A stretch of DNA of 64,000 bases from Elusimicrobiota bacterium. GTDB taxonomy: Bacteria; CG03; SLGR01; JAGXOG01. The notes beneath the pieces are model-generated. The model searched no databases. It was not told the origin of the DNA and saw only the letters and a list, made by a program, of their open reading frames with translations. The DNA lies in the NCBI GenBank assembly GCA_051745145.1, contig JBNJDT010000006.1, positions 2,545 through 66,544 of the forward strand, given 5' to 3'. Shown here piece after piece: positions 5,686 to 60,770 of this stretch (its first letter is position 1; every line of letters starts with the position of its first letter). The position numbers and the translations under genes are program-made.

Positions 5686-7224
5686 TTAATTTGATTTATA
5701 AGTTATGTAAAGGGGCTGTCCACGTCTTATTATATCCAGCACTATACCTTCTGATAAGTCAACTTTGTCAGTTGCTTTTTCAAAATCCTCCACTGTCTCT
5801 ATACTCTCTTTATTTATCCCTCTTATAACGTCTCCCACCCGCAGACCTATTTCATAACCTTCTTTAGAAGGATCTATCTCACTGACCACTACCCCTTTAT
5901 CTGCTTCAATATCAAACTGCTCTTTTACCATGGATGTAATATTACTGACTTCAAGTCCTTTCCAGTCAGCTGTAATTTCTTCTTTGACAGCCGGTTTGTT
6001 ACCCCGGTCGGTAGGCATTTTTTCGGGCATTTCCTCAAGCTCAACTTCAATAACTTTTTCTTCGCCGTCTCTTATTACAGTTAATTGAACTTCCTGGCCC
6101 GGGTCGGCGGAACTTACAAATTTCTGCAGGGACCTTACATCCGAAGCCGGTTTATCGTTAAACTTCACAATTATATCTCCCCGCTGGAGGCCGCCCTTGT
6201 CGGCAGCTGAGTCTTCAAACACATTATTTATTAAGACCCCTTCCCTGACCTCCAGGTCAAAATGCTCTTCCACCACTTCGTCCACTTCTCTGATCTCTAC
6301 CCCCAACCAGCCCCGGACCACTTTTCCTTCCTCTATTAAATCATCTAATATTTCTTTAGCCCGGTTTATGGGAGAGGCAAACCCCACTCCCGAAAATACT
6401 CCCGTGGGAGCAAATATAGCCGTATTTATTCCTATTGCTTTTCCGTCTAAATTAACCAGGGGACCTCCGGAATTTCCCCTGTTTATGGCGGCATCGGTCT
6501 GAAACATATCCCGGTAAGTAGAATTTTGTATTTCTATATCCTGCCTTAGGGCACTTATTATTCCCGCGGTATAGGTCTGCTGAAGTCCGAAAGGACTGCC
6601 GGCCGCTATTACCCAGTCTCCAATATTCATATCCTCCGAATCACCCATTTCCAGGACGTCAAATTTTCTTGAAGATTTAATCTTTACTACCGCCAGGTCC
6701 GTCCGGGAATCAGCCCCCACCACTTTTGCGTCATACCGTTCATCGTCATAGGTGGTTACTTTTATCTCTTCAGCCTCTCTCACCACGTGGGCATTAGTAA
6801 GAACATACCCGTCGGAAGTAACTATAAAACCGGAGCCTGTGCCCTCCTGCCGGTATTCCCGTTTTCGGGGGGAAGATTCTTCTTCTCTTTGGCGGGGCAT
6901 ACCGAAAAATCTCTCATAAAAATCTTCAAATGGATCCCCGAACCGGAACTGTTCAAACGGGGACCTGACTTCTATGACATGCACTGCGGAAACATTTACC
7001 ACCGCGGGTTTAATCTTTTCTACGGTATCGGCAAAAGATTGCTTGGGAATATAACTCCGGCTCTGTTTTTGAGTTTCCGAACTTTTGACCGGTTCAGGTA
7101 CCTTACTGACCGTATTATTTACGGTCTCTTTTTTTTCCCACGGCGTATAAAAATCACCGTGATATCCTAAGAACATCCCACCGATTAAAATTATCAGTAA
7201 AATTAAAAAACTTTTTTTATCCAT
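5686..7224 (-). CDS. HtrA/DegP-DegQ serine endoprotease with two PDZ domains
   Basis: LTNAHVV, TDLAVVK, QTDAAINRGNSGGPL catalytic triad; two PDZ-like repeats; N-terminal signal/anchor. Confidence 0.95.
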   Translation of the reverse strand: MDKKSFLILLIILIGGMFLGYHGDFYTPWEKKETVNNTVSKVPEPVKSSETQKQSRSYIPKQSFADTVEKIKPAVVNVSAVHVIEVRSPFEQFRFGDPFEDFYERFFGMPRQREEESSPRKREYRQEGTGSGFIVTSDGYVLTNAHVVREAEEIKVTTYDDERYDAKVVGADSRTDLAVVKIKSSRKFDVLEMGDSEDMNIGDWVIAAGSPFGLQQTYTAGIISALRQDIEIQNSTYRDMFQTDAAINRGNSGGPLVNLDGKAIGINTAIFAPTGVFSGVGFASPINRAKEILDDLIEEGKVVRGWLGVEIREVDEVVEEHFDLEVREGVLINNVFEDSAADKGGLQRGDIIVKFNDKPASDVRSLQKFVSSADPGQEVQLTVIRDGEEKVIEVELEEMPEKMPTDRGNKPAVKEEITADWKGLEVSNITSMVKEQFDIEADKGVVVSEIDPSKEGYEIGLRVGDVIRGINKESIETVEDFEKATDKVDLSEGIVLDIIRRGQPLYITYKSN

Positions 7225-7245
7225 TATTAACCTCCATTTTTATCA

Positions 7246-15438: not shown

Positions 15439-15933
15439 TTAATTTCCTTTTAATCCTCTTAACATAATTTTCTGGGAAAGACTGGCTCTCTTATCGCTCT
15501 GAGTTACGGTAAGCGTAGCACCGACGTGAGCGTATTTTGACGACGTACCGGTGGTTAGGTAAACATAAAAATCATCTACTCCGCCCTCGACTAAGGTAGT
15601 GGTGGAATTTCTCATCATTCTGCGCAAATTATTTCCCGCCTGAAAATACTTCACTGTATTATCTCCCCCCCAATCTGATGTGGAAATTGATATTTTAAAT
15701 TTTATGGAATTATTACCGTCTATCTGGGGTAATTCCGAAGCCTGGCGTACATATCTTGAAAGCTCGTTTAAGGCTATCCTGGACTTACTGTGTACATCAA
15801 CAGAATCACTGGTCATCCACCATATATCAAAAGTATTTCTGAAAAATCTCGCTGTCCCGTAACTTAAAATACCTATTACCGCTATCGAAATTGCCAGTTC
15901 TATAAATGTTACACCTTTATTAGATTTAATCAT
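15439..15933 (-). CDS. Type IV minor pilin/pseudopilin, PilW/PulJ-like
   Basis: Class III signal peptide KG|VTFIELAISIAVIGIL with Glu at +5. Confidence 0.8.
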   Translation of the reverse strand: MIKSNKGVTFIELAISIAVIGILSYGTARFFRNTFDIWWMTSDSVDVHSKSRIALNELSRYVRQASELPQIDGNNSIKFKISISTSDWGGDNTVKYFQAGNNLRRMMRNSTTTLVEGGVDDFYVYLTTGTSSKYAHVGATLTVTQSDKRASLSQKIMLRGLKGN

Positions 15934-18245: not shown

Positions 18246-18248
18246 TGT

Positions 18249-19214
18249 TTAAAAATTGACAGTAAACATTAAAGTATGCTCACTGTTCATCGCCTGGGCA
18301 ATGCCCATTCCATAATCAAATTTAAAACGGCTGTACTTTACTCCCGCTCCCCAGGTAAAATTTTTTATCTCATAATTAAACCGGTATCCGGACCGGAGAA
18401 AAAACATATCTCGGTATATATATTCGAATCCCGTATTTATCCTTATTATTTCACTTCCAAAATTATAAGTTGAATCCAGACTGATAAGAGAAGCATGCTC
18501 TTCATTAAAAATAGCAGGATAACTCACTCCCCCTTTTATTAAAGTGGGTAAAGGATCAGTAGCCCCTTCTTTTGTATAACCTACCCCCTTTCCCATATTT
18601 AATACCGACATACCCGCTCTTATTCCCGGAGAAAATATTCTTCCGTATACATTTTTGTTTCCCGTTTTGAAAAATGGGGTGTCCCATAAAAATCCCCCGT
18701 CAATCGATAAAGCAGCAGTTTCATAAGTTTCCAGTAAAGTTGAAGTATAATATCTTACTTTTAACCCCCCGTACATTTTCGGAGAAATTTTTGCTCCGTA
18801 GCCAGCTGAATAAACCATATCCTCCTGGGTTATAAAACTCTCTTCGTGCAAATCTTCGTAGCGACCGGCTGTATCATCTATGGTTATCTTTCCCCCAACA
18901 TAGCCCAGTGTGTCAATAGCAATACTGCCCGGCCCTACATTTAAAGCTCCTCCCGCATATCCCACCACCGAATCCAAAAAAGCCTCGTAGAAAACAGCAG
19001 AAACTGCATTTTTCTTTAAAGTTCCAAGCTGCGCCGGATTTAACCCCGTTGCGGTATAATCTCCCATAAAAGAGACCCCGCTCTCTCCGAGTGCATTTAC
19101 CCGGGGGGAGGGACAGAATTTTAATATCGGCGCCCCGGTACTTCCGTTTGAATAAAGGGGCTGTAAATTTAAAATAAATACCGGGATAAAAAAAAGGATT
19201 TTTCTGAAAAACAT
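18249..19214 (-). CDS. PorV/PorQ (UPF0164)-family outer-membrane beta-barrel
   Basis: Signal peptide; N-terminal GAPILKFCPSPRVNALGE...NPAQLG; LRSGYRF, FTWGAG, FDYG strands; C-terminal Phe (TVNF). Confidence 0.78.
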   Translation of the reverse strand: MFFRKILFFIPVFILNLQPLYSNGSTGAPILKFCPSPRVNALGESGVSFMGDYTATGLNPAQLGTLKKNAVSAVFYEAFLDSVVGYAGGALNVGPGSIAIDTLGYVGGKITIDDTAGRYEDLHEESFITQEDMVYSAGYGAKISPKMYGGLKVRYYTSTLLETYETAALSIDGGFLWDTPFFKTGNKNVYGRIFSPGIRAGMSVLNMGKGVGYTKEGATDPLPTLIKGGVSYPAIFNEEHASLISLDSTYNFGSEIIRINTGFEYIYRDMFFLRSGYRFNYEIKNFTWGAGVKYSRFKFDYGMGIAQAMNSEHTLMFTVNF

Positions 19215-19243
19215 TTCCTATTGCATAGCCGTCAAATTTTGTC

Positions 19244-20509
19244 TTATCTCTCAGACCAGCTCAATACCGTTATTATCCCGGAAGAATATTCACTGTCTTT
19301 TAAAGGGGGCATGAACATATCATCAGAATAAGTAATTTCCACATTGGAAGAGGCTTCCAGATCTCCTCCCACGGCCAGCATTCCGGTCATCTCCACATTT
19401 GAAGCCAGGTTGGCATCTCCCGGACACTGAATTATCCCCACCGGATCCACATTGGACTCCATATTAATATCTATCCCGTCCTTCCACTCATCCTCATTGT
19501 CTTTATCTCCGGCAACTACCCAGTTAATCCGCCCGTCACCGCTTACATTAGATCTAACATTAATGCCGTGGTAAGAAGGATTATCATCCGGCCCTACTAC
19601 AAAATTTCCGTCCCCTTCTAATGTTACATTGGAATCTATATTAATACCGTTGGGATAATAATAGGTTCCCCCGTTCAAATCATATGTGTTTCCCGATTCA
19701 AAATTAGCCCGGCCATCGGTAACGGTAAGATCCCCGCCAAAATCATAATTTTCAACTCCTTCGGCAATTAAAGCGGCGGCATCTACAATCTCATAGTCAT
19801 CGATTGGATCGGTTTTTTCGGAAGTGTCATTTTCTTCCCAGTGTACATCGTCCGGTATCTGATTGGAATTCCATATCTCATTTCTGGCCAGTATTTCTCT
19901 GATGCCGGTGGCGTTATTATCCGGGTCAAAATCAAAATTATTTCCCAGATCTATAGAGTACTGCCCCCCGTCATAAGCCCCGTACAGGGCCACATTCCCC
20001 TCACTGTCGGGTTTAAATACCACTCCAGTTTCTACAAAAATCTTATCGCTGGAATAAATTACTCCCCGGACTACAGTATTCGAATTAAAAGTGGATTGTC
20101 CTTCTGTCAGGGTGGCATACTGGGGTAAGCCCGCCGATACTTTAATCCGGGCCCTGATAGCCCTTTCCCCCCGGGACCGGGACTTAGAGGGAACATAGCC
20201 GGTTGAATTTATGGTGTATGTACTCCCGGACTTAGTTACAAAGACTTCAGCTACGCCCGACCGGCTACCCGTTGCCGTCCCCACGTTTATGGTAAAATCC
20301 CCGTCATCTTTGTCACGCAACCTATAAATCGCTCTTTCCACACCGGCGTCGGCTACATACAGGGCTTTTTCGGATAGCCGCTGATCTGTACCGCTTTTAG
20401 TTTCAAACCAGGTGAGCATCATCATAGCGCTGCCAAGTACTACCACCACCATCATAAGGAGTATCGTACCCACCAGCGCCATACCCTTATTGTTTTTAAA
20501 ATTTCTCAT
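19244..20509 (-). CDS. PilX/GspK-like minor pilin with repetitive C-terminal domain
   Basis: KG|MALVGTILLMM prepilin site lacking E5; ALYVADAGVERAI PilX-N motif; ends in VLSWSER. Confidence 0.8.
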   Translation of the reverse strand: MRNFKNNKGMALVGTILLMMVVVVLGSAMMMLTWFETKSGTDQRLSEKALYVADAGVERAIYRLRDKDDGDFTINVGTATGSRSGVAEVFVTKSGSTYTINSTGYVPSKSRSRGERAIRARIKVSAGLPQYATLTEGQSTFNSNTVVRGVIYSSDKIFVETGVVFKPDSEGNVALYGAYDGGQYSIDLGNNFDFDPDNNATGIREILARNEIWNSNQIPDDVHWEENDTSEKTDPIDDYEIVDAAALIAEGVENYDFGGDLTVTDGRANFESGNTYDLNGGTYYYPNGINIDSNVTLEGDGNFVVGPDDNPSYHGINVRSNVSGDGRINWVVAGDKDNEDEWKDGIDINMESNVDPVGIIQCPGDANLASNVEMTGMLAVGGDLEASSNVEITYSDDMFMPPLKDSEYSSGIITVLSWSER

Positions 20510-30410: not shown

Positions 30411-31208
30411 TTAATCCACCTGTACCGGTTCATCGACTACTTTCTCCCTGTAATACTCCAATAAAGTATCCTTAATTTCTTCAATTTCCAAATCTTTTTT
30501 TAAATTACCTTCTCGGGCCATGGAATATTTTCCGGATTCCTGGGAAACTATTATAACTATGGCATCGGAAACCTCTGTTAAACCCACACCTGCCCGGTGT
30601 CGGGTACCCATAACTTTAGACATCCGGTTATTGTGAGTAAGCGGTAGAATACAACCTGCCGCAACAACCCGGTCTCCGGACAGTATAACTGCCCCGTCAT
30701 GCAGCGGCGAGGGCGGGGTAAAAATTGTCTCTAACAATTCCGAAGATATTTCCGCATTTACCGTTATGCCGGTCTCTATATAATTTCTTAAACCCGTCTC
30801 CTGTTCTAATACTATTAAGGCTCCATTTCCCCGGCGGGAAATATTTTTGACGCTCTTAACTAATTCTTCTATAAACTCCACTTTTCCCCGCATTATAATG
30901 CGGGTTAGACGCCCGGATCCAAGATGAGCCAGAAAACTTCTTATCTCTGGTTGAAAAACTATTACCAGGGCTACAGCTCCGGCAACCCAGAACCACCTGA
31001 CCATCCATCCTATAAGAACTAAATTTAAAACGTCGGCAAATAAAGTAGCCACCAGAAGAAATACTATCCCCCGCAGTACCTGTACAGACCTTGTTCCGCG
31101 GATAAGGGTAAATAACTTATATATAACAAAAGCACTAATAAATATATCTAAAATGTGTCTTAAATAATTCACCCAAAAATTTTGTAAAATTGGTAAAATT
31201 TCTGTCAT
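30411..31208 (-). CDS. cdaA: Diadenylate cyclase CdaA (DacA)
   Basis: Three N-terminal TMs, VIVFQPEIR, GALIV, SPLHDGA, GTRHRAG, VSQESG. Confidence 0.95.
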   Translation of the reverse strand: MTEILPILQNFWVNYLRHILDIFISAFVIYKLFTLIRGTRSVQVLRGIVFLLVATLFADVLNLVLIGWMVRWFWVAGAVALVIVFQPEIRSFLAHLGSGRLTRIIMRGKVEFIEELVKSVKNISRRGNGALIVLEQETGLRNYIETGITVNAEISSELLETIFTPPSPLHDGAVILSGDRVVAAGCILPLTHNNRMSKVMGTRHRAGVGLTEVSDAIVIIVSQESGKYSMAREGNLKKDLEIEEIKDTLLEYYREKVVDEPVQVD

Positions 31209-46850: not shown

Positions 46851-48761
46851 TTATCTGTGGTTATGCAAAATATCCAAGGGTATATTTTTTACCCATAAGT
46901 TTTTAAAATCTACATATATATTATTACCGATTATTACCCGGGTCCCTATCATATACCTTCCTAATCTATATCCTGACTCCCCCTCTATCTTAAAATCAAA
47001 CTTTATAGTTTTAGTGCCATCTTTTTTTATTACTTTAACATTATACTTTTCCTTTGACAAATTTATTCCGGCAAGATCCGGAAAATCCAGTTTTATATTT
47101 TTAAGATCGGTATCTTTTAAATTATTTAATTTAATTTGACCGGAATATTCTTTGTTATTTTCTATAGATCTGGGAACAATAATATTTACATCCACTTCCG
47201 GAGTATCCATAATCTTCGTAAAACTCCTTCCCGAGGCCAGCATCCACTCCATAGAAGAATAAGGTCCTTTTCTACCCCACATAGCCCGGCTAAAATCATT
47301 AATAAAAACGCCTGTGAGATTTTGAAATTTACCTTCTCTTATAGAATCAATCCCTTTTTCCAGTCTCCTGTTAAATTCTGATGGTCCCGAAGGATAAATA
47401 GTATACTGATGTAAGGGCCAGTCAATCTGATTTCCCATGACCAAATTTACCGGTTGAGCTTTAGTATAGTCCCTCCATCTTCTTATTAAATAATTATATC
47501 TGGGGGTGTCCGTCTCATACATCATTACCGCTATTAAATCCGCCCCTGCATCCTGAAACATGATCGGATCCTGACCGTGTTCATGTCCAAGTTCCCAGCT
47601 TAAAGTAAATGTCCACAGAGGTTTTTTAAAGTTTATATCTTTTTTTAAGCGGTTAATTATTTTTGAAATTCTATGGGCTCTCCACCAGTTCCATTTATCT
47701 ATTATTGAAATCTTTCTTCCTGTAGAACGAGTAACTATTTCCCCCAACCAGATCATTCGCTGTCTATTATCCATGTTATTCCACTCAACCGGCACATCTA
47801 TTTCCATAGCTTTTACAAAATCATTCACCAGTTCCAACCCACCGCCGGCGGGTCGGATATAATCTAAGCCTATATAATCTATATTTGAGTTTTCATTTAA
47901 TCTCCGGGCCATCTTTTTTATATCGTTATACCGGCGCCCGTCTAATATAGAAATACCGTCCGTCTTCTTTAATTTTTCCGAAGATCGGGAGTACTTATAA
48001 CTGTAATTATACCACTCCGGTTTTAATGAACTTATGCCAAAAGTTCTAAAACAAGTAATCCAGGCTCCAAAATCAACTCCTTCCTTTTGAGAAGCCGCAG
48101 CAAATTCTTTTAGATTAGAAATATTATCTTTTACCCACGGTAAATCTCTGTCAATATCCCCTTCCGAATATGAAGCTGTCTGCGCCGCCATATACCACAA
48201 AGTATTCCCCCCCACATAGTTTATCCAGTCAAATATTCCTTCATAATCTTTGGTTTCGCCGGCCGGGGTCGGAATATTAAATCGGTGAATATTTCCACTA
48301 CTTTCCAGGTTAAAAACTTTTAAAGGCTTCTCAAAACTAAATCGCGAAATTCTACTGGTAATATAAAATATATCTTCCGCAATTACCTCTTTCCCGTCTC
48401 CAAATAATTTAATATTATAGACTCCTGCTTTCGCTTTTCGAGGAACTGGAAATATACCTTTTAATTTTTTATTCTCTTCACTATAGGAAAACTTTACGCT
48501 ATCTTGCTCACCCACGGTAGTAATCTTTTTATCATTTTTATATATGACAGCTTCTTTAATAAAATCTTTTGCCATATCCGTGTTACCGGTAATTTCTAAA
48601 TTAATTATGTTATAGTGTAAATAAGCTAATTTATCAGTTCTTAAATTTAAGGCAGGTAAAAATAATAACTGTATAACTGAACCTATAAATACAATACATA
48701 AAATTATTATGTAATATTTCTTGGAAATGTCTTTTATTAAAGGTAAGTAATTAAATTTCAA
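46851..48761 (-). CDS. Membrane-anchored hypothetical protein with a probable glycoside-hydrolase-like TIM barrel and C-terminal Ig-like domain
   Basis: N-terminal TM; DYIGLDYIRP and ADLIAVMMY resemble GHL10/DUF187 motifs; beta-rich C-terminus. Confidence 0.45.
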   Translation of the reverse strand: MKFNYLPLIKDISKKYYIIILCIVFIGSVIQLLFLPALNLRTDKLAYLHYNIINLEITGNTDMAKDFIKEAVIYKNDKKITTVGEQDSVKFSYSEENKKLKGIFPVPRKAKAGVYNIKLFGDGKEVIAEDIFYITSRISRFSFEKPLKVFNLESSGNIHRFNIPTPAGETKDYEGIFDWINYVGGNTLWYMAAQTASYSEGDIDRDLPWVKDNISNLKEFAAASQKEGVDFGAWITCFRTFGISSLKPEWYNYSYKYSRSSEKLKKTDGISILDGRRYNDIKKMARRLNENSNIDYIGLDYIRPAGGGLELVNDFVKAMEIDVPVEWNNMDNRQRMIWLGEIVTRSTGRKISIIDKWNWWRAHRISKIINRLKKDINFKKPLWTFTLSWELGHEHGQDPIMFQDAGADLIAVMMYETDTPRYNYLIRRWRDYTKAQPVNLVMGNQIDWPLHQYTIYPSGPSEFNRRLEKGIDSIREGKFQNLTGVFINDFSRAMWGRKGPYSSMEWMLASGRSFTKIMDTPEVDVNIIVPRSIENNKEYSGQIKLNNLKDTDLKNIKLDFPDLAGINLSKEKYNVKVIKKDGTKTIKFDFKIEGESGYRLGRYMIGTRVIIGNNIYVDFKNLWVKNIPLDILHNHR

Positions 48762-49771: not shown

Positions 49772-49848
49772 TGGCGCGCCCGGTAGGAATTGAACCCACG
49801 GCCTTTGGCTCCGGAAGCCAACGCTCTATCCAGCTGAGCTACGGGCGC
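49772..49848 (-). tRNA. tRNA-Arg (CCG)
   Basis: GCGCCCG acceptor, TAGCTCAGCTGGATAGAGC, anticodon arm TTGGC-TTCCGGA-GCCAA, GGTTCAATTCC, encoded CCA; 77 nt. Confidence 0.95.
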
Positions 49849-50344: not shown

Positions 50345-50650
50345 TTATTTAGTTAATTGTTCTTCAACTTTTTCTTTTTCATCTTTTAATTTTTCTTTTG
50401 CTTCCTCTGTCTTTTTTTCGGCCTTTTCTTTATATTCTTCACCTTTATCCTTAACATCCTGAAACAAATTATCCAAGCCCATATCTACAGGTTTCTTATC
50501 AATGCGGGGTAATAGCAAATAGTTAGCGGATATAATAATTAAAACCACCAAAATCAGCCAGCAGATATTTTTAACAATTCCTTTTAATATTTTAAGAATT
50601 AATATTAAGAGCAGCAGCACTACCCCGATTACAATATAAATATTTAACAT
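50345..50650 (-). CDS. Small two-TM hypothetical protein with charged tail
   Basis: Hydrophobic N-terminal half, K/E-rich helix; overlaps pncB stop. Confidence 0.7.
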   Translation of the reverse strand: MLNIYIVIGVVLLLLILILKILKGIVKNICWLILVVLIIISANYLLLPRIDKKPVDMGLDNLFQDVKDKGEEYKEKAEKKTEEAKEKLKDEKEKVEEQLTK

Positions 50651-52104
50651 TTTTTCCTCTTTATTATTCTCTCTTTTACATCTTTAAGTCGGTCACTTAA
50701 ACTCACCTTATATATATGGGGATTTAAGAATCTTTTATAAGTGGGGTGCAGTTTAAATAAATTTTTTGAAGTTCTATCTCTAATCTCATTTAAGGAACTA
50801 AAATTTTTATTTATTCTACCATCTTTTACTACATTTTTAAGTAAAATGCTGTAACTTTTATACTTTTCCAATACCAAACTCTGTTTATTCAAATCAGGAT
50901 GATTAAACTTTATATCTTGGGAATCGTCAACTTTTTTGAGCAATTCTTCCTTTTCCCGTTCTAAAAATATTAGGTCGACCATATCCCCGTCTTCTTTGTA
51001 AAATCTCATAACATTTTTTATCCCGGGATTACTTGCTTTATCCGGATTATCTGAAAGCTTCATAGTAGCCTCATAATCTCCGCCGCCATCTGCTTTTGCG
51101 GCCAGTTTATACACCCCGGTTAAAGAAGGACTGTCCTGGGCAGTGACCAGTTTTGTACCCACACCGAAAAAATCTATGGGAGCTTCTTTATTCAGAAGTT
51201 CTTCAATAATATATTCATCCAGTTCATTGGAGACAACTATATTAGCCTCTTTCAGATCAGCCCGATCCAGCTTTTCTCTTGCCTTTTTACTTAAATATTC
51301 AAGATCTCCGCTATCCAATCTTATTCCAAATTTCTCTACACCCTTATTTTTTAGTTCTTTTAATACTTTTATTGCGGCCGGTATGCCACTATTTAAAGTA
51401 TCATACGTATCTACCAAGAGAATAGAATTTTTCGGATAAAGTTCGGCAAATTTTCGAAATGCCTCTTCTTCACTTTTAAAAGCCTGTACCCAGCTGTGGG
51501 CCATAGTTCCTTTCACGGGAATACCATAAACTTTACCGGCCAGTGTGTTAGAAGTAGCTGCCGCGCCTCCGATATACGCTGCCCGGGACGCAGCCATTGC
51601 TCCGTTTGTACCCTGGGCTCTTCTCAAACCGAATTCCAGTATTGCTTTCCCTCGGGCAGCTTCGGCTATCCGAGCTGACTTAGTAGCAATCAGGGTCTGG
51701 AAATTAACTATATTTAACAGCAAACTCTCTATTAGCTGGGTTTCTAGTCTATCTCCGTGAACCCGGATAAGAGGCTCACCGGGAAAAACCACTGTGCCCT
51801 CATCAACAGCGTAAATATCTCCGGTAAACTTAAAATCAGAAAGGTAATTTAAAAATTCTTCTTTAAAAAGCGCCTGCTTCCTGAGATATTCTATTTCTTC
51901 TTCGGTAAACTCAATATTTATTAACTTGTCCACTACCGGCTTCAAACCGGAAAAAATAGAATAACCGCCCTGGAAAGGTTGCTCCCTGAAAAACATATCA
52001 AATACCACTTCAATGCGGGGTCCCGAAAAATAATAACCCTGCATCATAGTCAACTCATACAGATCAGTCAACAATCCGTATTTATTGAATTTACCAGAAT
52101 TCAT
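50644..52104 (-). CDS. pncB: Nicotinate phosphoribosyltransferase
   Basis: LLTDLYELTM, EFGLRRAQG, GTMAHSW, LVDTYDT, IRLDSGD, GVYKL. Confidence 0.96.
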   Translation of the reverse strand: MNSGKFNKYGLLTDLYELTMMQGYYFSGPRIEVVFDMFFREQPFQGGYSIFSGLKPVVDKLINIEFTEEEIEYLRKQALFKEEFLNYLSDFKFTGDIYAVDEGTVVFPGEPLIRVHGDRLETQLIESLLLNIVNFQTLIATKSARIAEAARGKAILEFGLRRAQGTNGAMAASRAAYIGGAAATSNTLAGKVYGIPVKGTMAHSWVQAFKSEEEAFRKFAELYPKNSILLVDTYDTLNSGIPAAIKVLKELKNKGVEKFGIRLDSGDLEYLSKKAREKLDRADLKEANIVVSNELDEYIIEELLNKEAPIDFFGVGTKLVTAQDSPSLTGVYKLAAKADGGGDYEATMKLSDNPDKASNPGIKNVMRFYKEDGDMVDLIFLEREKEELLKKVDDSQDIKFNHPDLNKQSLVLEKYKSYSILLKNVVKDGRINKNFSSLNEIRDRTSKNLFKLHPTYKRFLNPHIYKVSLSDRLKDVKERIIKRKKC

Positions 52105-52110
52105 AGGAGT

Positions 52111-53628
52111 TTAGTTTTCAAAAAGTTTTTCAGTTCTTTCTATCTCATTTATAATAGCACTGTCAAGTTTATTATTATTTACTGCGGGCTTAAAATTTTC
52201 ATCCACGTGCTGAGGAATATTATTAACATATCTGGTATCCAGTTCATATTTTCTATCACTGTATTTTGCGCCTTCCACACCCCGGGCCTTTATTTCAAAT
52301 AAATTTACCTCTACTCCTTTTTTGACTATATCATCTATAGTATTTTTCATTTCTTGATCGGAATCAAGATTATTGTATACCCCAACCATTTTACAGCCAT
52401 AAAATTTCTCCAGCTGATTTGCCAATTTATCTAATATATATTCAGGAGCTGTAGTAAAAAAAGCACATTTTTTATTTTTAAGGCTCTCTGTTTCTCCTAC
52501 AATTTCCGGTATGAAGCGAGTATTAAAAATCCGGGAGTCTGAAACTCTCTTTTTTATTATGCCGGCTACCTGCTTTACACGATCCGGTTTGACGGTTTCC
52601 GGCTGGCAGTTAGCTATGATAAAAAGTCGCGCTTTTTCCAGTCCCGGAAAATCTTCCAATAAATCCAGGGGAACATCCGCTGGAATAAAGAAGATAATAT
52701 TATCTACAGCTACCGGGGGGTGTTCACCGCCGCTACCCTCATGTATTGTTAAATTAGCCTCACTGCTGTTTGCTTTTTCTATACCCTTATCGGCATTGGA
52801 AACTACAAACTCGTTAAAATATCCACCACCGGCCCGGCGGCACCCTATCATGGAAAGATAGGGAACCTTCTTATCCTTTTTTTCCCATTCGTCTAAATAT
52901 TTAGAAAGTATCAAAGCATCTTCAAATACGTCCGAAGCACCGTGTAGCCCAAAATCAACAAGCTTTTCCAGATACTCTTCTTTAAATCGGGAAGTAAGTA
53001 TATCATCTATTGTTATTTCAGAAAGAGGTTTCTCTTTACTTCTCTTATGAATTTCTATTAACGGGGGATCCGGCGGTCCGCCCCGAGAATGAGTTATTAC
53101 TACCGGTTTCCATGGGGTATTGCCCCCTTTAAGCCCCGCTACAAGATTACCTATATATGAACCGAAGGATGTCTTTCCAACCCTTTTATTTGTAGCATAA
53201 AGTCCCAACGAGGGATTAGAATGACGCATTTTTACCCGGTATTCATTAAAAACTGTGCCCCCGGCTATATATTTAGCTTCATAAGCGGAAGCTATCAGAG
53301 CGTATTTAACTGTTAATTTTCTAAATATCTGGGGGGCTCCGGATAGCTGAACAACTGTTTTAATATCACTGTTTTCACTTAAAATTTTCTTTATCCCTTT
53401 TTCCGGAACACAGTTATTATCGGCATCCAGTGGAAAATACACTTCCACATTAAATTCATCCTTAAATATATTCTTAAATTTATCTTTCGACTCCAATTTT
53501 TCTGTACCCCCGATCCAGACCAAAGCCGATACTTTCACATTAAACCGTTTACACAATTCCTTTATTGAAAATATAGAATTATTGGGTTTATGCGTTCCGT
53601 CTATCAAAAAAAGTGCTTTATTCTTCAT
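52111..53628 (-). CDS. cpgS: Cyclic 2,3-diphosphoglycerate synthetase-like protein
   Basis: LIDGxH, GGTEK, KRVGKT, RGGPP, GASDxxEDA, GCRRAGGG, EGSG..PP, FFTTAP...YGC, EIKA, NIP; same operon as 2PGK. Confidence 0.82.
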   Translation of the reverse strand: MKNKALFLIDGTHKPNNSIFSIKELCKRFNVKVSALVWIGGTEKLESKDKFKNIFKDEFNVEVYFPLDADNNCVPEKGIKKILSENSDIKTVVQLSGAPQIFRKLTVKYALIASAYEAKYIAGGTVFNEYRVKMRHSNPSLGLYATNKRVGKTSFGSYIGNLVAGLKGGNTPWKPVVITHSRGGPPDPPLIEIHKRSKEKPLSEITIDDILTSRFKEEYLEKLVDFGLHGASDVFEDALILSKYLDEWEKKDKKVPYLSMIGCRRAGGGYFNEFVVSNADKGIEKANSSEANLTIHEGSGGEHPPVAVDNIIFFIPADVPLDLLEDFPGLEKARLFIIANCQPETVKPDRVKQVAGIIKKRVSDSRIFNTRFIPEIVGETESLKNKKCAFFTTAPEYILDKLANQLEKFYGCKMVGVYNNLDSDQEMKNTIDDIVKKGVEVNLFEIKARGVEGAKYSDRKYELDTRYVNNIPQHVDENFKPAVNNNKLDSAIINEIERTEKLFEN

Positions 53629-55264
53629 CTATAAGAATCTCTCCTTTCAATTTATCCTTTATCTCTTTGCGTTTTTCCGGTTCCATAGCATAAAGTACGG
53701 TAGGGGCCACATCCTTAAGACAGCCCTCTTTTTTTATTTTAACATCTTTTCCTTCCTGATCTTTAATTAAAAACGGGACCGGGTTCTGAGTGTGAAATGT
53801 AGAAGGAGTGTCATCATCAGTCAACAGGTCCTCCAAGTTACCGTGATCCGCTGTAATAAAAACTACGGTATTATTTTTCTCAGCTTCTTCAGTTATCTTT
53901 TTTAAAGAATCGTCAATCTTTTCTATGGCCTTAATTGCGGCCTCTTTGTTGGCGGTATGTCCTACCATATCCGGATTAGCTATATTTACAATCATAAAAA
54001 ATTTAGGTTTACTTTTCTTTAATATTTCTACTATCTTATCAGTTAATCTGGGTAACTCTATCTTTGGAAATTTTTCATAGGGATTCATTTTAAATCCCGG
54101 CTCCCCTTTTTTCTCTTCGTATTCCGCCATATAATTTTCCATTTCCTCGGGCAGAGGAACAACTACTCGATGTTCATGCTCAAAAGGTTCTTCTCTGCTG
54201 CCCCCGGAAAGCAAAACTACTGCCTGTTTTTTGTCAACTCCGCTTACCCGGTATTGAGTATAACCGAATTTTTCAAGCATACTCCCCAAAGAATCCGCCT
54301 GCTGTAAATCTTCATAAGCCACAGGACAAGAAATATCCTTGTAGTATTCCACCAGTGCTCCGAAATCAAGAGAACTATAATCCAGATCTTTTTCTTTCAG
54401 TTTTTTAAAATCTTTATCACCGACTATTTTTTTGAGTTCTTCTTCTGATTTTAAAAAAGCTTTCATCAACATGCTGGCCCGGTCTTTGCGAAAATTCCAG
54501 TGGAAAAGAGCATCTCCTTCCGAAACCCCTTTATAATCCCCGAGTACCCTTACATTTATATACTGATCGGTGATCTTTTCTTCGTAATCTTTTTTAAATG
54601 CTCTGAATATATTATCTTCTCTTGTGCCGATACCTTCTATTATAGCCCGGTAAACTTTTATAGTTTTGTACCAGGAATCGGATGAGCGGTTCATCGAAAT
54701 ATCTCGGCCGCTGACAGTAGCTAGTTTAATCTGAGTACCATCAGATGCCATCTCCTCGGCTTTCATTTGCAGGTCTTCCGCAAAACGCACTCCGGAAAAA
54801 GGCGGGGTACCCCGTCCGTCGGAAAAAAAATGAATATATATTTTTTCGACACCTTTCTGAACTGCTCTTCTCATTATTGCATAAAGATGTCTGATATCAG
54901 AATGTTCCCGGTTTGTAGAAACCAATCCCATAAGATGCAGGGCTTTTTTACGGGCAGCAACTTTTTCTATAATATCATCAATAACTTTATTTTTAATTAC
55001 GCCGTCTTTTATATCCTTAGCTACTCTTACCATGGGATGTACATAATCCACCCCGCTCATAACTTCATGCCCGACTGCCGTTGAGCCCATAGCGTCTTCG
55101 GTCATACCTACCCGGGGACCTACAGCAACAAGCTTTTCGTAATTTAACTTATCCAGAAAAGGTGTATCGGCAAATTTTACCGGATTGTCGTCCTCATCTT
55201 TGCTTAACCCCAATCCGTCTACTATAACCAAAAGACCCTTGCCGGAATTTTTAACCGGTTTCAT
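53618..55264 (-). CDS. gpmI: 2,3-bisphosphoglycerate-independent phosphoglycerate mutase
   Basis: DGLG, MGSTAVGHE, DGRGTPP, SGR...M, NFRKDRA, ANPDMVGHT, ADHGN, HT.NPVP. Confidence 0.92.
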   Translation of the reverse strand: MKPVKNSGKGLLVIVDGLGLSKDEDDNPVKFADTPFLDKLNYEKLVAVGPRVGMTEDAMGSTAVGHEVMSGVDYVHPMVRVAKDIKDGVIKNKVIDDIIEKVAARKKALHLMGLVSTNREHSDIRHLYAIMRRAVQKGVEKIYIHFFSDGRGTPPFSGVRFAEDLQMKAEEMASDGTQIKLATVSGRDISMNRSSDSWYKTIKVYRAIIEGIGTREDNIFRAFKKDYEEKITDQYINVRVLGDYKGVSEGDALFHWNFRKDRASMLMKAFLKSEEELKKIVGDKDFKKLKEKDLDYSSLDFGALVEYYKDISCPVAYEDLQQADSLGSMLEKFGYTQYRVSGVDKKQAVVLLSGGSREEPFEHEHRVVVPLPEEMENYMAEYEEKKGEPGFKMNPYEKFPKIELPRLTDKIVEILKKSKPKFFMIVNIANPDMVGHTANKEAAIKAIEKIDDSLKKITEEAEKNNTVVFITADHGNLEDLLTDDDTPSTFHTQNPVPFLIKDQEGKDVKIKKEGCLKDVAPTVLYAMEPEKRKEIKDKLKGEILIDEE

Positions 55265-55267
55265 TAA

Positions 55268-55696
55268 TCACTCTTTGCTCTTTTTAAAATATTCTAATAT
55301 TGCTTTGTGAGAATCAGAAATACTGATTATTCCCGTCATCTTACCATTTTTCATAACTGGTACTCTGTGAATATGTTTTTCCACCATTAAATTAAAAACA
55401 GCGAGAACATCCGTATCCTCATCAACTGTAACAACTTCTTCAGTCATAATTCCTTCAACCCAGTTAAACTTCCCCCGCTTCCTCTCTATTTCTTCAATAC
55501 TTACATGGACCTTAATTAAGTCAGAAACCGCATTTATTATATCTTTAAGGGACACCATCCCTATTAAATTATTATCGTCGTCTACAACCGGAGCTCCGGT
55601 TATCTTGTTCTCCTGCAGAATATTTATCATCTTTCTTATAGTGTAATATTTTTTAACTGTTATGACTTCTGGGGTCATTATTTGTGATGCTTTCAT
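55268..55696 (-). CDS. Stand-alone tandem CBS-domain protein
   Basis: IMTPEVITV, ITGAPVVD, IMTEEVVTV, IHRVPV. Confidence 0.93.
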   Translation of the reverse strand: MKASQIMTPEVITVKKYYTIRKMINILQENKITGAPVVDDDNNLIGMVSLKDIINAVSDLIKVHVSIEEIERKRGKFNWVEGIMTEEVVTVDEDTDVLAVFNLMVEKHIHRVPVMKNGKMTGIISISDSHKAILEYFKKSKE

Positions 55697-55741
55697 TCAT
55701 TTCCTCCGTAAAATTTATTTTACAATTTAATTACTGTCTTA

Positions 55742-56644
55742 TTAATTATTTACAGATATCTTATCTATAATATTATTCACAACACTTTTTGTGGTTTTAA
55801 TTGAGTTTATATTGTTAAAATACGGGTAATCCCTCTTTTTCGCCCCCTTAATTATATAGTCTTGAATCATTCGAATAGCTTCTATATTTTTAAGATATTT
55901 TTCCGCGGCCCGGTCTTCCGTAGAACGTCCACGCATATGAAACCTGTTCTTGTGTTCTTCCTCATCTTCAATATATACAAAAGCTTTTACTATATTTGCC
56001 CCGGGGAATTCATTCTCATCAATAAGTTCGGGTAAAATATGAACGCCGTTTATTATAAGAGAAGTTTTTTCAACTATACTCCTGCGAATTATACTTTTTA
56101 TTCCAGCATTGACTCTAAGGGCCTGTTCCCTGAAAGCTATTATTTTCTGGTTTTTAGATTCCTTTACAGGAACCCAAAATTTTTCAGAAGCCAGATAAGA
56201 AGAGGTGTGTATCATCGGTAAGATATCGTTAGAAAAAAGAGCTCGCATAATTTCTCTCACTATATCTGTGGTAAACATAGATGTGATATCCAGTCTCTGA
56301 GCTAATTCAACCGATACTGTGCTTTTACCCGAACCCGTTGAACCTCCCAGAAGAATTATAAGCGGCTTCTCCAGTCCCATGATCTTTCTAAATTTTAAAT
56401 ACCTTTGAGAAGTAACTTTATCAAGCTCATTTTCCAATTCTTTGGCTACTATCTGGCGAAGTTTATCTCTGTCTATCTTAGTCCGCCCTTCCTGGTTTAA
56501 TCTATTTCTTACCCTCCGGGCTATATTGTATGCTTTATTAAACTTTATACCAATAGTTGTTAAAGAACTGGCCAAAACATGTATGGAAAATGGAAGCTTT
56601 AAATCTTCGCCAACTATTTCAATTAAATTATTTGCCTTTGCCAC
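55742..56644 (-). CDS. pgk2: 2-phosphoglycerate kinase with N-terminal ATP-cone-like domain
   Basis: LPFSxxVLASSL; LIILLGGSTGSGKST; TDIVREIMR; HTSSY; IINGVHILP; EEHKNRF; IRMIQDY. Confidence 0.88.
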   Translation of the reverse strand: MAKANNLIEIVGEDLKLPFSIHVLASSLTTIGIKFNKAYNIARRVRNRLNQEGRTKIDRDKLRQIVAKELENELDKVTSQRYLKFRKIMGLEKPLIILLGGSTGSGKSTVSVELAQRLDITSMFTTDIVREIMRALFSNDILPMIHTSSYLASEKFWVPVKESKNQKIIAFREQALRVNAGIKSIIRRSIVEKTSLIINGVHILPELIDENEFPGANIVKAFVYIEDEEEHKNRFHMRGRSTEDRAAEKYLKNIEAIRMIQDYIIKGAKKRDYPYFNNINSIKTTKSVVNNIIDKISVNN

Positions 56645-57453
56645 TATCTTATCCTTAACCCCGCATAACCTACAACTCTATTATCATCCCCGGTAACCCG
56701 GGCACTTGTATTGTAATGTATAAATTCACATTCATCGGCCCCTAATTCAATAGAAGCTTTTATGGTTACGGCAACCGGCGCTGCCCCGCACATGGATATT
56801 CTGTTATCCCTTACAACGTCCAGTAAACCCGTATAATCCAATTCTTTTATTTTATCTATAGCCAAATTATCACATTTTTGAGCTTCTTCTTTAGTAACAA
56901 AATGAGACATATCACTTGAAGCAACTATTAATACATCCCCTCCGGTAGATTCAACAGCACCGGCAATCGCTTTTCCTATATCTTCTATACAGTCAATATT
57001 GCTATTGGATATTCCCAGGCATATCGGGACAAATTCAATGTTCGGATTTTTATATAATAAAAAGGGTAACTGTACTTCTATAGAATGTTCAGACAGATGG
57101 GCTTTTGAATCAGAAGCTAAAAAACTGCTTTTTGAAGCAATATCTGAAGCTAAATTTTCTGCTATATCCACTTTTCCCGGGGGAAGTCTCCAGGATCCCT
57201 TTTTCATAATACTGGCCGGCTTTCCCTGCCCGGTATGGTTGGGCCCTATTATAACTACCCGGTCCGGAACGCGTATGCCAGAATAAGTCAACCCGGCTAC
57301 TTTTCCCGAAAATATATAACCGGCATGAGGTACGATAACGCCTTGTACTTTTTTTTCTCCCTGGCCCGGGACATCCATATATTTTTTAACCGTATTATTT
57401 AACTCATTGCTATCGCTGGGGTAAAATTTACCCGCCACCGCAGGTTCTCTCAC
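56644..57453 (-). CDS. amrB: AmmeMemoRadiSam system protein B (MEMO1 family)
   Basis: REPAVAGKFYP, PHAGYIFSG, GPNHTG, EHSIEVQLPF, ASSDMSH, SMCG, VVGYA. Confidence 0.95.
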   Translation of the reverse strand: MREPAVAGKFYPSDSNELNNTVKKYMDVPGQGEKKVQGVIVPHAGYIFSGKVAGLTYSGIRVPDRVVIIGPNHTGQGKPASIMKKGSWRLPPGKVDIAENLASDIASKSSFLASDSKAHLSEHSIEVQLPFLLYKNPNIEFVPICLGISNSNIDCIEDIGKAIAGAVESTGGDVLIVASSDMSHFVTKEEAQKCDNLAIDKIKELDYTGLLDVVRDNRISMCGAAPVAVTIKASIELGADECEFIHYNTSARVTGDDNRVVGYAGLRIR

Positions 57454-57615
57454 TTTATATACCTCCTAAAGTATAATTTTTACATATTTTTCTATTAAAT
57501 CATTATATAATAATTTTTAACGGCGATGCAAATTATCTACAAATTTCCAGTTCACTATCTAAATTTACTTTCCGTACAATTAAGCACGGCTGGTTTAAAT
57601 AAATGCCGGCTCAAT

Positions 57616-57650
57616 AAAAAAAGCGGGCCGATTTAACAGCCCGCTTTTCT
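57616..57650 (-). terminator. Rho-independent terminator after hsp20
   Basis: Minus strand AAAGCGGGC-N10-GCCCGCTTT followed by a T run. Confidence 0.85.
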
Positions 57651-58196: not shown

Positions 58197-60770
58197 TTAA
58201 ACCGCTTTTTCAAAAGCAAATTCTTCGGTCTTACGATGGGTATCAATTTTAACCGTATCCCCTTCCTTAAAATCCCCTTCTAATATTTTCATTGACAGAG
58301 GATTTACAATTTTTCTCTGAATAGCCCTCTTAAGGGGCCGGGCCCCGTAGTTGGGATCGTATCCTTCCTCGGCCAGTTGCTTTTTAGCATCTTCAGTAAG
58401 TTCTATTGTAATATCTTTCTGCCGGGCGTATTCCCTTAAATTATCCACCTGAATATCTACTATATTTTTTAGATCGCTCTCATTTAAACTGTTAAAAAAT
58501 ACTATATCATCCAACCGGTTTAAAAATTCCGGTTTGAAAGTTGCCCGGAGCTCATCCATTATCTTTTCCTCGCCCGTATCCTCTATAATATGACGGCTTC
58601 CCAAATTGGAAGTCATTATTACAATAGTATTTTTAAAATTAACCGTCCTACCCTGGCCATCGGTTAACCGGCCGTCGTCAAGTAACTGCAACAATATATT
58701 AAACACATCCCGGTGAGCCTTTTCTATTTCGTCAAACAATATTACTGAATACGGTCTTCTCCGGACTGTTTCAGTCAGCTGCCCCCCCTCGTCAAAACCC
58801 ACGTATCCGGGAGGGGAGCCTATCAATCTGGATACCGAATGCTTTTCCATATATTCGCTCATATCTATACGGACCATGGCCTCTTCATCATCAAACAAAA
58901 ACTCAGCCAGAGTTCTGGCAAGTTCTGTTTTCCCCACACCGGTCGGTCCAACAAATATAAAAGATCCAACGGGCCTATCGGGGTCCTGAAGCCCGGCCCG
59001 GGAGCTTCGCACAGCATCGGAGACCCGTTTTACAGCTTTGTCCTGGCCTACCACCCTTTCTTTAATCTTACTTTCCATATTAATAAGCTTCTGTTTCTCA
59101 CTCTCCAACATTTTAGATACGGGAATCCCGGTCCATGAAGACACAACTTCCGCAATTTCATCCTCATCAACTTCTTCTTTTAAAATGCGTTTGTCGGACT
59201 GCAGCTTTTCAAGCTTCTCTGCCTTGTTTTCAAGTTTATTTTTTAAATCATTTATAACGCCGTATTTCAGTTCGGCGGCCCTCTCAAGATCCGTCTCTCT
59301 TTCCGCCTTTTCCTGTTCAATTTTAGCTTTTTCTATTTTGTCTTTTATATCCCTTATTTTTACTATTAGATCTCTCTCCTGTTTCCAGTGACCTTTGAGC
59401 TCATCACTTTTTTCGCGTAAATTAGCTAAATTTTTCTTAAGTTTACTTAATTTTTCCCGGCTGGCTTCATCTTCTTCTTTTTTAAGTGCTCTCTTTTCTA
59501 TTTCCAGTTTACGTATTTTACGCTCTACTTCATCTATCTCTGCAGGCATACTCTCTATTTCTATATTTAATCTTGAAGCAGCCTCATCTATTAAATCGAT
59601 GGCCTTGTCCGGTAAAAACCTGTCCGTTATATACCTGTTAGACAGGGTGGCAGCCGCAATTATTGCCGAATCTTTTATCTCAACCCCGTGGTATACTTCA
59701 TATCTGTCTTTAAGCCCCCTTAATATGGCTATGGTATTTTGAACGTCCGGTTCTTTTATAAGTACTTTCTGAAACCTTCTTTCCAGGGCTGCATCCTGTT
59801 CTATATGTTCCCGGTATTCATCTAAAGTTGTAGCCCCTATACATCTTAACTCCCCCCGGGCCAGCGCAGGTTTTAACATATTAGAAGCATCAACCGAACC
59901 TTCAGAGCTTCCCGCCCCTACAACTGTATGCAACTCATCAATAAAAAGTATTATTCTGCCGTCAGAACTTTTTATCTCTTTTAAAACTGCTTTTAATCTT
60001 TCCTCAAATTCCCCCCGGAATTTAGCTCCGGCAAGCAGACTGCCAAGGTCAAGTGCTATAACCCGTTTATTTTCAAGGGATTTCGGTACATCTTTTTCAG
60101 TTATTCTCTTAGCCAGCCCTTCAGCTATGGCCGTCTTCCCGGTACCCGGTTCTCCGATAAGTACGGGATTATTCTTTTTACGACGGGAGAGAACTTGAAT
60201 TACTCTTCTTATTTCATCATCTCTGCCTATTACCGGGTCCAGTTTGCCCTTAGAGGCCAGGTTAGTTAAATCTCTGGCGTATTTTTCCAGTACTTTATAT
60301 TTTGATTCCGGATCCTGGTCAGTTACCCGCTGCTCCCCCCGGATATCCTTAAGTCCTTCCAGTATATCTTCTATTTTAATATTATAATTTTCTCTTATCT
60401 CTTTTATTTTTCCGGTATTTTCCTCCAGTATAGCTAGCAATAAATGTTCCACGGAGACATATTCATCTTTAAATTTCTCTGATTTTTTAAAGGAATTATT
60501 TATTACGCCGTTAAGTCTTTGAGATAAATACACTTCTCCCCCGCCGGAAATACGGGGTCTGTTTTCCAAATCTTTTATAAGTGTCTTTTTTACACTCGCA
60601 GGGGAGACTTCCAGTTTTTCTAAGATAGAACCTGCTATTCCATTATCATCTTCTAATAAAGCCAAAAATAAATGTTCTACATCCAACTGTTGATGTTCCC
60701 ATTTTCGGGCAAAACTCCTCATCTTTTCTATAGCTTTTCTTGCTTTAATAGTTAATTTATCTAATTGCAT
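58197..60770 (-). CDS. clpB: Chaperone ClpB
   Basis: Clp-N domain, two AAA modules ([16 protein letters not shown]), long coiled-coil middle domain; no ClpP-binding IGF/LGF loop recognised. Confidence 0.97.

Follow-up and report, generated by a model that had tools for sequence, protein, structure and literature searches.

A conserved four-gene module with homologues of 2-phosphoglycerate kinase, cyclic 2,3-diphosphoglycerate synthetase and phosphoglycerate mutase in uncultured bacteria

The stretch of DNA considered here, 64,000 nucleotides of contig JBNJDT010000006.1 from an Elusimicrobiota bacterium (the window), carries on its minus strand four contiguous genes that form a conserved module. 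They code for a 2-phosphoglycerate-kinase-like (2PGK-like) P-loop kinase, a stand-alone CBS-pair protein, a variant homologue of phosphoglycerate mutase of the cofactor-independent type (iPGM) and a divergent homologue of the synthetase (cDPGS) of cyclic 2,3-diphosphoglycerate. We give slightly better than an even chance to the reading that this operon leads from 3-phosphoglycerate (3-PG) through 2-phosphoglycerate (2-PG) and 2,3-diphosphoglycerate (2,3-DPG) to cyclic 2,3-diphosphoglycerate (cDPG), under the control of CBS and ATP-cone-like domains. Judged by its sequences, the operon appears to be a diverged bacterial version of a known pathway of two enzymes, to which two dedicated components have been added, the catalytic centre of one being altered, and the cDPGS-like, kinase and iPGM families each seem to point independently to phosphoglycerates. 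The proposal draws on gene order, homology, fold, ligand conservation, synteny, co-occurrence and in-situ transcription, all of which were observed.

The variant iPGM would convert 3-PG to 2-PG, which the 2PGK-like kinase would phosphorylate with ATP to 2,3-DPG; the cDPGS-like enzyme would spend a second ATP on closing the intramolecular pyrophosphate ring, yielding cDPG, ADP and Pi. This flux may be tied to adenylate or second-messenger status by the CBS-pair protein together with the N-terminal, ATP-cone-like part of the kinase. The product would be a polyanionic compatible solute or K+ counter-ion, possibly also a phosphate, carbon or energy reserve, and not specifically a thermoprotectant. 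Both solute- and reserve-type roles of cDPG have been discussed for methanogens (PMC1224877).

Gene order, recurrence and transcription

The four genes and the spacer between the first two are as follows, in the order of transcription:

55742-56644, minus strand: 2PGK-like P-loop kinase, 300 amino acids (aa), matching NF003259 below its cut-off
55697-55741, minus strand: 2PGK/CBS intergenic spacer, 45 nt, with a GGAGG ribosome-binding site 7 nt 5' of the CBS start codon
55268-55696, minus strand: stand-alone CBS-pair protein, 142 aa, with two PF00571 domains
53618-55264, minus strand: variant iPGM homologue, 548 aa, recognised by TIGR01307
52111-53628, minus strand: divergent cDPGS homologue, 505 aa, recognised by phmmer against 8ORK and by its fold

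The coordinates of the open reading frames (ORFs) leave a gap of 45 nt between 2PGK and CBS, a gap of 3 nt between CBS and iPGM and an overlap of 11 nt between iPGM and cDPGS, exactly as given in the original prediction, which had been made from the letters of the window; the family names proposed there (2PGK, CBS, iPGM, cDPGS-like and pncB) likewise hold at family level in profile and PDB searches. Through the 11-nt overlap, the cDPGS-like gene appears to be translationally coupled to the iPGM-family gene. The spacer contains no terminator and its fold is weak (-8.4 kcal/mol).

A GTDB scan with one genome per species returned 27 cDPGS-like loci, all in metagenome-assembled genomes (MAGs), and a metagenome scan was seeded with the variant iPGM, the flanks being annotated with hidden Markov models (HMMs) for the four parts. 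At least six loci that differ from one another (L001, L003, L005, L007, L012/L040 and the truncated L062) have the 2PGK-CBS-iPGM-cDPGS block, with 52-80% protein identity and unrelated flanking genes; since it recurs in this way, the adjacency of the four genes is not due to chance. In the Elusimicrobia-type subclade, all loci with enough flanking sequence (L001/L004, L003, L005, L007 and L012) harbor the full block, and L006, L008 and L011 are partial blocks.

Five layouts were found in total: A (2PGK-CBS-iPGM-cDPGS), A' (CBS-iPGM-cDPGS), B (CBS-2PGK-iPGM), C (CBS-iPGM) and D (a short 2PGK-like gene of about 210 aa, with no ATP-cone and no CBS gene beside it, followed by iPGM). In about 22 of 25 loci with usable flank, a 2PGK-like gene stands directly before the variant iPGM. 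A second tier, consisting of Glassbacteria and relatives, has an operon in the order CBS, 2PGK-like (362-400 aa, ATP-cone at 45 bits) and iPGM. The variant iPGM and the cDPGS-like clade occur in the same phyla: four MAG locus-tag prefixes of the second cDPGS subclade (JXQ83, FVQ81, VM123 and U9N45) appear in both match lists, at unlinked loci, and sample ERZ25039513 contains the cDPGS-like gene and the variant iPGM on different contigs. The iPGM and CBS proteins are thus probably dedicated components, belonging to subfamilies that seem to co-evolve with these kinase and cDPGS-like genes. At locus L061, a frameshift or a sequencing error breaks the variant iPGM into two ORFs (6140-7237 and 7230-7856).

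Salt-lake metatranscriptome assemblies contain the locus (up to 63% of sampled words), and their RNA contigs cover all four genes. The cDPGS/iPGM junction is spanned by RNA contigs at 53445-53848 and 53422-53680, the iPGM/CBS junction by 54465-55469, and the junctions with the flanking genes listed further below by 51676-52200 (pncB/cDPGS) and 56147-56763 (2PGK/Memo). RNA-contig depth reaches 55-195 on tRNA-Arg, about 12-20 on HSP20, about 5-12 on the operon and 0-3 on clpB, and such unevenness across tRNA, operon and clpB speaks for RNA and against carried-over DNA. The tRNA-Arg(CCG) gene (49772-49848, minus strand), just downstream of the transcription unit, has by far the highest RNA depth in the region, an internal indication that these runs are truly RNA. 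In three runs, RNA contigs join position 59948 of the stretch 59917-59948, within clpB, to position 55237, where iPGM starts and CBS ends, with 5 extra letters; their loose ends are GC-rich, unlike the window genome, and the probable source is a foreign contig that matches the window over short local stretches.

Homology of the enzymes and of the CBS-pair protein

The 505-aa protein was identified through PDB sequence and fold searches. In phmmer it aligns over its full length with the cDPGS of Methanothermus fervidus (8ORK/8ORU; E 2.1e-44, residues 4-497 on 6-450). An AlphaFold2 model built with 115 sequences (pLDDT 94.2, pTM 0.91) matches 8ORU in Foldseek with a TM-score of 0.85 normalised to the target and 0.78 to the query (E 5e-37), and the next fold matches, HypB and UreG (E >5e-3), extend to the C-terminal P-loop domain only. 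The doubt expressed earlier, that this protein might fail to align with cDPGS over its length, is thus answered by an alignment of residues 4-497 and a common fold. The two-domain architecture of cDPGS, with a unique N-terminal domain and an LpxK/UreG-like P-loop C-terminal domain, is retained in the model. Precomputed database annotation places PF27272 (CpgS_N) on this protein and on its whole clade; the NCBI label for most clade members is “hypothetical protein” and the JGI label for some is “predicted GTPase”.

In the crystal structure of cDPGS, 2,3-DPG is liganded by K145, R146 and, from the other subunit, E45 with K46, Mg is liganded by T150 and D208, K149 and K406 bind phosphates and shield charge, and T353, E404 and E305 contact adenosine/ribose (PMC10690619). 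E45, K46, K145, R146 and K149 map to E43, K44, K148, R149 and K152 of the window protein, and T150, D208, T353, E404 and K406 to T153, D233, T393, E445 and K447. All ten of these tested positions are invariant in the 26 aligned sequences (16 from the clade and 10 canonical). The M. fervidus enzyme and the window protein are collinear and have every tested 2,3-DPG, Mg and phosphate ligand in common.

Relatives of the 505-aa protein were searched in a set of 5.8 billion proteins. About 50 were found at 44-80% identity, all in uncultured bacteria (Elusimicrobiota, Glassbacteria, Gemmatimonadota, KSB1 and Eremiobacterota); below this clade, identity drops to 31% or less, with the canonical enzymes of methanogens and of Rubrobacter- and Gaiellales-type actinobacteria. 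In a neighbour-joining tree the cDPGS-like clade is monophyletic (46/46), with two monophyletic subclades, and distances average 0.45 within groups and 0.78 between the clade and canonical cDPGS, from which it is separated by 21 group-specific fixed positions. The only clade member labelled “archaeon” is one MAG that groups with Glassbacteria-type sequences. The term “archaeal-type” used for the operon in the original prediction is therefore misleading: the clade is monophyletic and bacterial, about 29% identical to the archaeal enzymes and equally far from canonical bacterial ones. For the same reason, that the clade is monophyletic and bacterial in the tree, a recent transfer from archaea was rejected.

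The canonical bacterial homologues (Rubrobacter- and Gaiellales-type, 410-460 aa, known from database annotation only) belong to the same PF27272 family and also have bacterial hosts, but they resemble the archaeal enzyme far more (against 8ORU, P0081 reaches 312 bits and the window protein 155) and do not have the insertions of the clade. At L038, the canonical bacterial locus examined, none of the neighbours is a 2PGK, CBS or iPGM gene; a Metallophos gene lies upstream instead. Likewise, the cDPGS locus of Methanobrevibacter (L039) has no such neighbours, whereas the window operon joins both pathway genes to a variant iPGM and a CBS pair; the four-gene operon is found on neither of these two canonical cDPGS chromosomes. 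The Metallophos phosphoesterase gene of L038 (5182-5988) ends 13 nt 5' of the canonical bacterial cDPGS gene, and its product is a possible partner in cDPG turnover.

Where the cDPGS-like gene stands alone, other neighbours recur. At eleven loci of the Glassbacteria/Gemmatimonadales (L014, L016, L017, L020, L022, L023, L024, L026, L027, L031 and L032) it is always preceded by genes for a DHH/DHHA1 phosphoesterase, a candidate enzyme for the turnover of cDPG or 2,3-DPG, and for a PilZ protein, which hints at control by c-di-GMP. In these loci (e.g. L031, 5762-7954), a GatZ/KbaZ-like gene lies downstream on the opposite strand. At loci of Vulcanimicrobiota/Eremiobacterota type (L015, L018, L019, L021, L025 and L033, e.g. 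L033 9613-10029), a conserved 138-aa protein without Pfam match is encoded directly 3' of the cDPGS-like gene.

The kinase matches the 2PGK equivalog model NF003259 (PRK04220) end to end, with residues 6-297 on positions 4-293 of 306 (289.9 bits), and its P-loop GGSTGSGKST is conserved. It is collinear with the archaeal 2PGK model, N-terminal domain included. This ATP-cone-like domain is weak in the window protein (22.9 bits, below cut-off) and scores 45.4 bits in a subclade-2 orthologue. A PDB search with the kinase found no solved relative. Both enzyme families of the cDPG pathway of M. fervidus (2PGK and cDPGS; 8ORK/8ORU; PMC10690619, PMC12136491, PMC1224877) are thus common to the window operon, M. 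fervidus being a hyperthermophilic methanogen and the window host a bacterium from a saline habitat.

The iPGM homologue narrowly passes the TIGR01307 cut-off (344.7 bits, cut-off 330.65), scores 252 bits on the stricter PRK05434 model (cut-off 862) and matches TIGR02535 with 28.6 bits only. Identity is 44-80% within its subfamily, in two tiers (Elusimicrobia-type, 57-80%; Glassbacteria/Gemmatimonadota/Fibrobacterota, 44-50%, 568-600 aa), and 35% or less to ordinary iPGMs of about 510 aa. Residues were compared between 54 members of the variant subfamily and 55 ordinary iPGMs, with the window protein aligned to the Staphylococcus aureus iPGM. The metal ligands D12, D403, H407, D444, H445 and H462 correspond to D16, D432, H436, D473, H474 and H491 and are invariant in both groups, so that the variant has the six metal ligands, as well as the two-domain architecture, of GpmI (Bacillus stearothermophilus 1EJJ, S. 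aureus 4MY4/7TL8; TIGR01307). H121, R151, R187, R193, R259, R262 and K345 of the variant are also common to both groups. Of the nine residues that contact substrate in iPGM (S62, H123, R153, D154, R185, R191, R261, R264 and K336; PMC3886921), seven are kept; the two losses, S62 and D154, are taken up below. Ordinary GpmI stands alone, whereas 2PGK-like and/or CBS genes invariably accompany the variant. From these sequence features, it is very probable that the variant subfamily catalyses a reaction of an anion resembling phosphoglycerate, and a role in supplying 2-PG is plausible. The statement that the operon has its own phosphoglycerate mutase holds insofar as the protein belongs to the iPGM family; it is a member of a divergent subfamily, for which mutase activity would be a prediction.

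The CBS-pair protein consists of two tandem PF00571 domains (103.4 bits). Both operon types have, beside the variant iPGM, an orthologue of it with the conserved motifs ITGAPVVD, NWVEG and HIHRVPV, and it is a candidate dedicated regulatory subunit. Among solved structures, its nearest relative is MJ1225 of Methanocaldococcus jannaschii, an AMPK-gamma-like protein (PDB 3KH5, E 5e-18), which has the same Bateman module of two CBS domains; unlike MJ1225, the window protein is a single pair of 142 aa, with a conserved long linker containing NWVEG, and is specific to these operons. In other bacteria, CBS pairs are bound by c-di-AMP, a regulator of the homeostasis of osmolytes and K+. The operon protein matches the model of the c-di-AMP-binding CbpB weakly (36.6 bits, cut-off 125). 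About 21 kb from the operon, beside folP and ftsH, the window codes for a CdaA-type diadenylate cyclase (30411-31208, minus strand; DAC and CdaA_N domains).

The relatives include MAGs from the soda-lake sediments of Kulunda, where the salt content is 70-110 g/L for CSSed10 and at saturation for T1Sed (PMC6146748). The window proteome is not acidic (median isoelectric point 8.3), suggesting an organic-solute rather than a salt-in strategy; this and the salt-lake origin make the solute or K+ counter-ion role the most likely one. The thermoprotectant role first suggested for the product does not agree with the source, which is saline (salt-lake metatranscriptomes, soda-lake MAGs) and not evidently thermal. 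A growth temperature of about 54 °C estimated from the IVYWREL content of 36 proteins is too crude to be used, the sample being small and the genome AT-rich and Lys/Glu-rich.

Points against the pathway and alternative readings

A number of observations weigh against the proposed pathway. Those on the cDPGS-like protein include its low identity (about 29%) to the sole characterised cDPGS and the absence of any match in local Pfam-A or NCBIfam profile scans. Three changes are fixed in the clade: the P-loop is ATNKRVGKT instead of the canonical GTGKRIGKT (G142A, G144N/D), the adenosine ligand E305 is replaced by Q (Q342 in the window protein), and AI is replaced by EH after the EGSG motif, so that EGSG-AAIPP becomes EGSG-GEHPP. 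Among the six clade insertions of at least 5 aa (residues 51-58, 65-70, 166-170, 197-213, 241-255 and 477-483), the two of 15-17 aa at 197-213 and 241-255 flank the Mg ligand D233 on both sides. The cDPGS-like clade might consequently have a new function, its product being other than cDPG, for example another phosphoanhydride, or the pathway might end at 2,3-DPG, serving as a solute, effector or phosphate store. These insertions, the changed nucleotide contact, the lack of a local curated HMM match, the long branch and the 21 fixed positions would all fit such a change, as would the many genomes that have a 2PGK-iPGM pair without a linked cDPGS-like gene. We nevertheless consider it clearly improbable, given that all 2,3-DPG and Mg contacts are invariant, including the trans-subunit E45/K46 pair, that fold and two-domain architecture are kept, and that the gene overlaps the iPGM-family gene by 11 nt in an operon with a 2PGK-like gene.

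For the kinase, the score on NF003259 stays below the curated 2PGK cut-off of 343 bits and the family has other specificities, the mevalonate-3-phosphate 5-kinase model scoring 85 bits. The layouts also raise doubts: the Glassbacteria cDPGS-like gene is unlinked to CBS-2PGK-iPGM, and some lineages have incomplete arrangements (no flanking 2PGK, CBS-iPGM alone, or the short 2PGK-iPGM without CBS), namely L011 and L061 (Lake Tanganyika MAGs/contigs), L048-L050, L052, L055 and L056, among which is CBS-iPGM-cDPGS without 2PGK within 2-5 kb. No RNA contig spans the 2PGK/CBS gap and none covers 55656-55735; we infer co-transcription across it. Some relatives come from lake, spring and aquifer sediments that, by the MAG names, we take to be non-saline.

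The iPGM homologue departs from its family at the catalytic centre itself. The nucleophile Ser62 is replaced by Thr (GNSEVGH becomes GSTAVGH) in all 54 subfamily members, at a position occupied by Ser in all 55 ordinary iPGMs, in a gap-free alignment, and Asp154 is replaced by Gly (Gly152 in the window; DGRD becomes DGRG), again in 54 of 54. Further changes at canonically invariant sites are E63 to A, D to N192 and D to S194 (DRD becomes NRS), E to G342, H to A348 and N to G354, with E to Q234 in addition, several acidic residues being lost; LSDGGVHS becomes VSTNxEHS, and there are insertions at 274-292 and 374-392. It is therefore possible, if on the unlikely side, that the pathway operates as proposed with the variant iPGM acting on 2,3-DPG or cDPG rather than as a 3-PG/2-PG mutase: it might be a 2,3-DPG phosphatase, a cDPG hydrolase for regulated turnover, or an intermolecular phosphotransferase that forms or consumes 2,3-DPG. 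Acidic and polar sites are replaced while the metal ligands and the Arg, Lys and His binders are kept, and the lost negative charge would suit a more anionic ligand. Thr nucleophiles are normal in the alkaline-phosphatase superfamily, where they are usual in phosphodiesterase/pyrophosphatase (NPP) members and in phosphopentomutase.

There is also a precedent, since some cofactor-independent PGM homologues have taken on a new task, that of intermolecular phosphotransferases (HomK; bioRxiv 10.1101/2024.10.14.618325). In this homoserine phosphotransferase (TIGR02535), few specificity-determining changes around the metal/nucleophile core switch substrate or reaction, and the new role was shown by gene neighbourhood; HomK, however, is on the apgM branch, of archaeal type, and has retained Ser where the variant iPGM has Thr, and the comparison made here is at superfamily level. 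In addition, iPGM paralogues are rare in bacteria (PMC2964296), and enzymes of cDPG turnover are known biochemically, with no gene assigned in the review PMC1224877. On the other hand, a phosphatase beside a kinase would make a futile cycle unless there were reciprocal regulation, the protein passes the TIGR01307 cut-off and has seven of nine phosphoglycerate-binding residues intact, and the adjacency to 2PGK across layouts reads most simply as consecutive biosynthetic steps.

A bolder variant of this idea, which we hold only tentatively, is that the Thr-nucleophile iPGM paralogue performs a new reaction on 2,3-DPG or cDPG, by phosphotransfer that forms a bisphosphate or by ring-opening hydrolysis, with the CBS protein and the ATP-cone kinase as a switch gated by energy or a second messenger, in a hitherto unrecognised solute system derived from phosphoglycerate and shared by several uncultured phyla. 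These may include Elusimicrobiota, Glassbacteria/Gemmatimonadota, Eremiobacterota/Vulcanimicrobiota and Fibrobacterota-labelled MAGs. If this were so, cDPG or a close analogue would be a mesophilic bacterial osmolyte and not an archaeal thermoprotectant.

Finally, the arrangement might be incidental, with a housekeeping glycolytic iPGM and a generic CBS protein that happen to lie between two archaeal genes gained by horizontal transfer. A single iPGM is common in ordinary bacterial genomes, and no second PGM was found among the window ORFs of at least 200 aa, which would fit a housekeeping role. We leave this only a very small chance and regard it as largely refuted: the iPGM and CBS proteins are specific subfamilies whose genes, across several phyla and layouts, are seen only together with these kinase and cDPGS-like genes; the iPGM is distant from ordinary ones and altered at its catalytic centre; and the cDPGS-like clade has no archaeal member save the one MAG so labelled, the operon being absent from both canonical loci examined.

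The pathway from 3-PG to cDPG also stands apart from the searchable literature, in which cDPG and cDPGS are described only from (hyper)thermophilic methanogens (PMC10690619), a further point against it, although cDPGS homologues have been noted in thermophilic ammonia-oxidising archaea (PMC10690619, PMC7554672). Nothing relevant that links the cDPG pathway to operons, to soda lakes or to the bacterial phyla named here was found in that literature, nor was a description of the four-gene arrangement, in agreement with the original prediction. If the proposed pathway is true, it would extend cDPG to bacteria and to saline, apparently non-hyperthermal habitats, and would offer a compact four-gene cassette that starts from 3-PG, an abundant intermediate of glycolysis, for heterologous production of cDPG, a compound in demand as an industrial “extremolyte” (PMC12136491). 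It would further define a new Thr-nucleophile iPGM subfamily, whose activity may be new and which may possibly hold a missing gene of cDPG/2,3-DPG turnover, and would provide a testable example of CBS/ATP-cone control over the synthesis of a compatible solute.

Flanking genes and the rest of the window

The module is part of a longer transcription unit, whose other features are:

57610-57646, minus strand: strong intrinsic terminator after HSP20, a GC-rich hairpin GCGGGCTGTTAAATCGGCCCGC followed by a T-run, read by eye
56644-57453, minus strand: Memo/AmmeMemoRadiSam-B gene, first in the local transcription unit (TIGR04336, 297 bits)
50644-52104, minus strand: pncB, nicotinate phosphoribosyltransferase (NAPRTase), 486 aa (NF006695, 645 bits)

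The terminator after HSP20 is the upstream boundary of the Memo-2PGK-CBS-iPGM-cDPGS-pncB unit. Memo overlaps the 2PGK-like ORF by 1 nt, and 6 nt separate the cDPGS-like gene from pncB. Since the four-gene block recurs with unrelated flanks, pncB and Memo are bystanders: pncB is adjacent only in the window and L001/L004, and Memo, adjacent only in the window and its 80%-identical relative, is not adjacent in L003, L005, L007 and L012. Both were rejected as pathway members, being absent beside the module at these last four loci. The earlier statement that the operon continues into pncB is thus correct for the window genome and its closest relative; elsewhere pncB lies outside the conserved module.

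A promoter consensus scan was uninformative in this AT-rich DNA (42 promoter-like sites, 25.6 expected) and a terminator consensus scan stayed at background level, the boundaries of the unit being read by eye from the sequence instead. An Rfam search of the window found three tRNAs only, with no riboswitch or leader in the operon.

The window is bacterial, as it codes for FtsH, TilS, HolB (DNA polymerase III delta'), Der, HflX, an ECF sigma-70 factor, DegP, GpsA, PlsY and a PorV-family outer-membrane protein. A 636-aa ORF without Pfam or NCBIfam match (46851-48761, minus strand) is conserved in L001, the 80%-identical relative, with its position and length unchanged. A cell-surface cluster (15930-20509, minus strand), with an FG-GAP repeat protein, a PorV/PorQ-family outer-membrane protein and a PilX_N-like protein, is consistent with a diderm bacterium.

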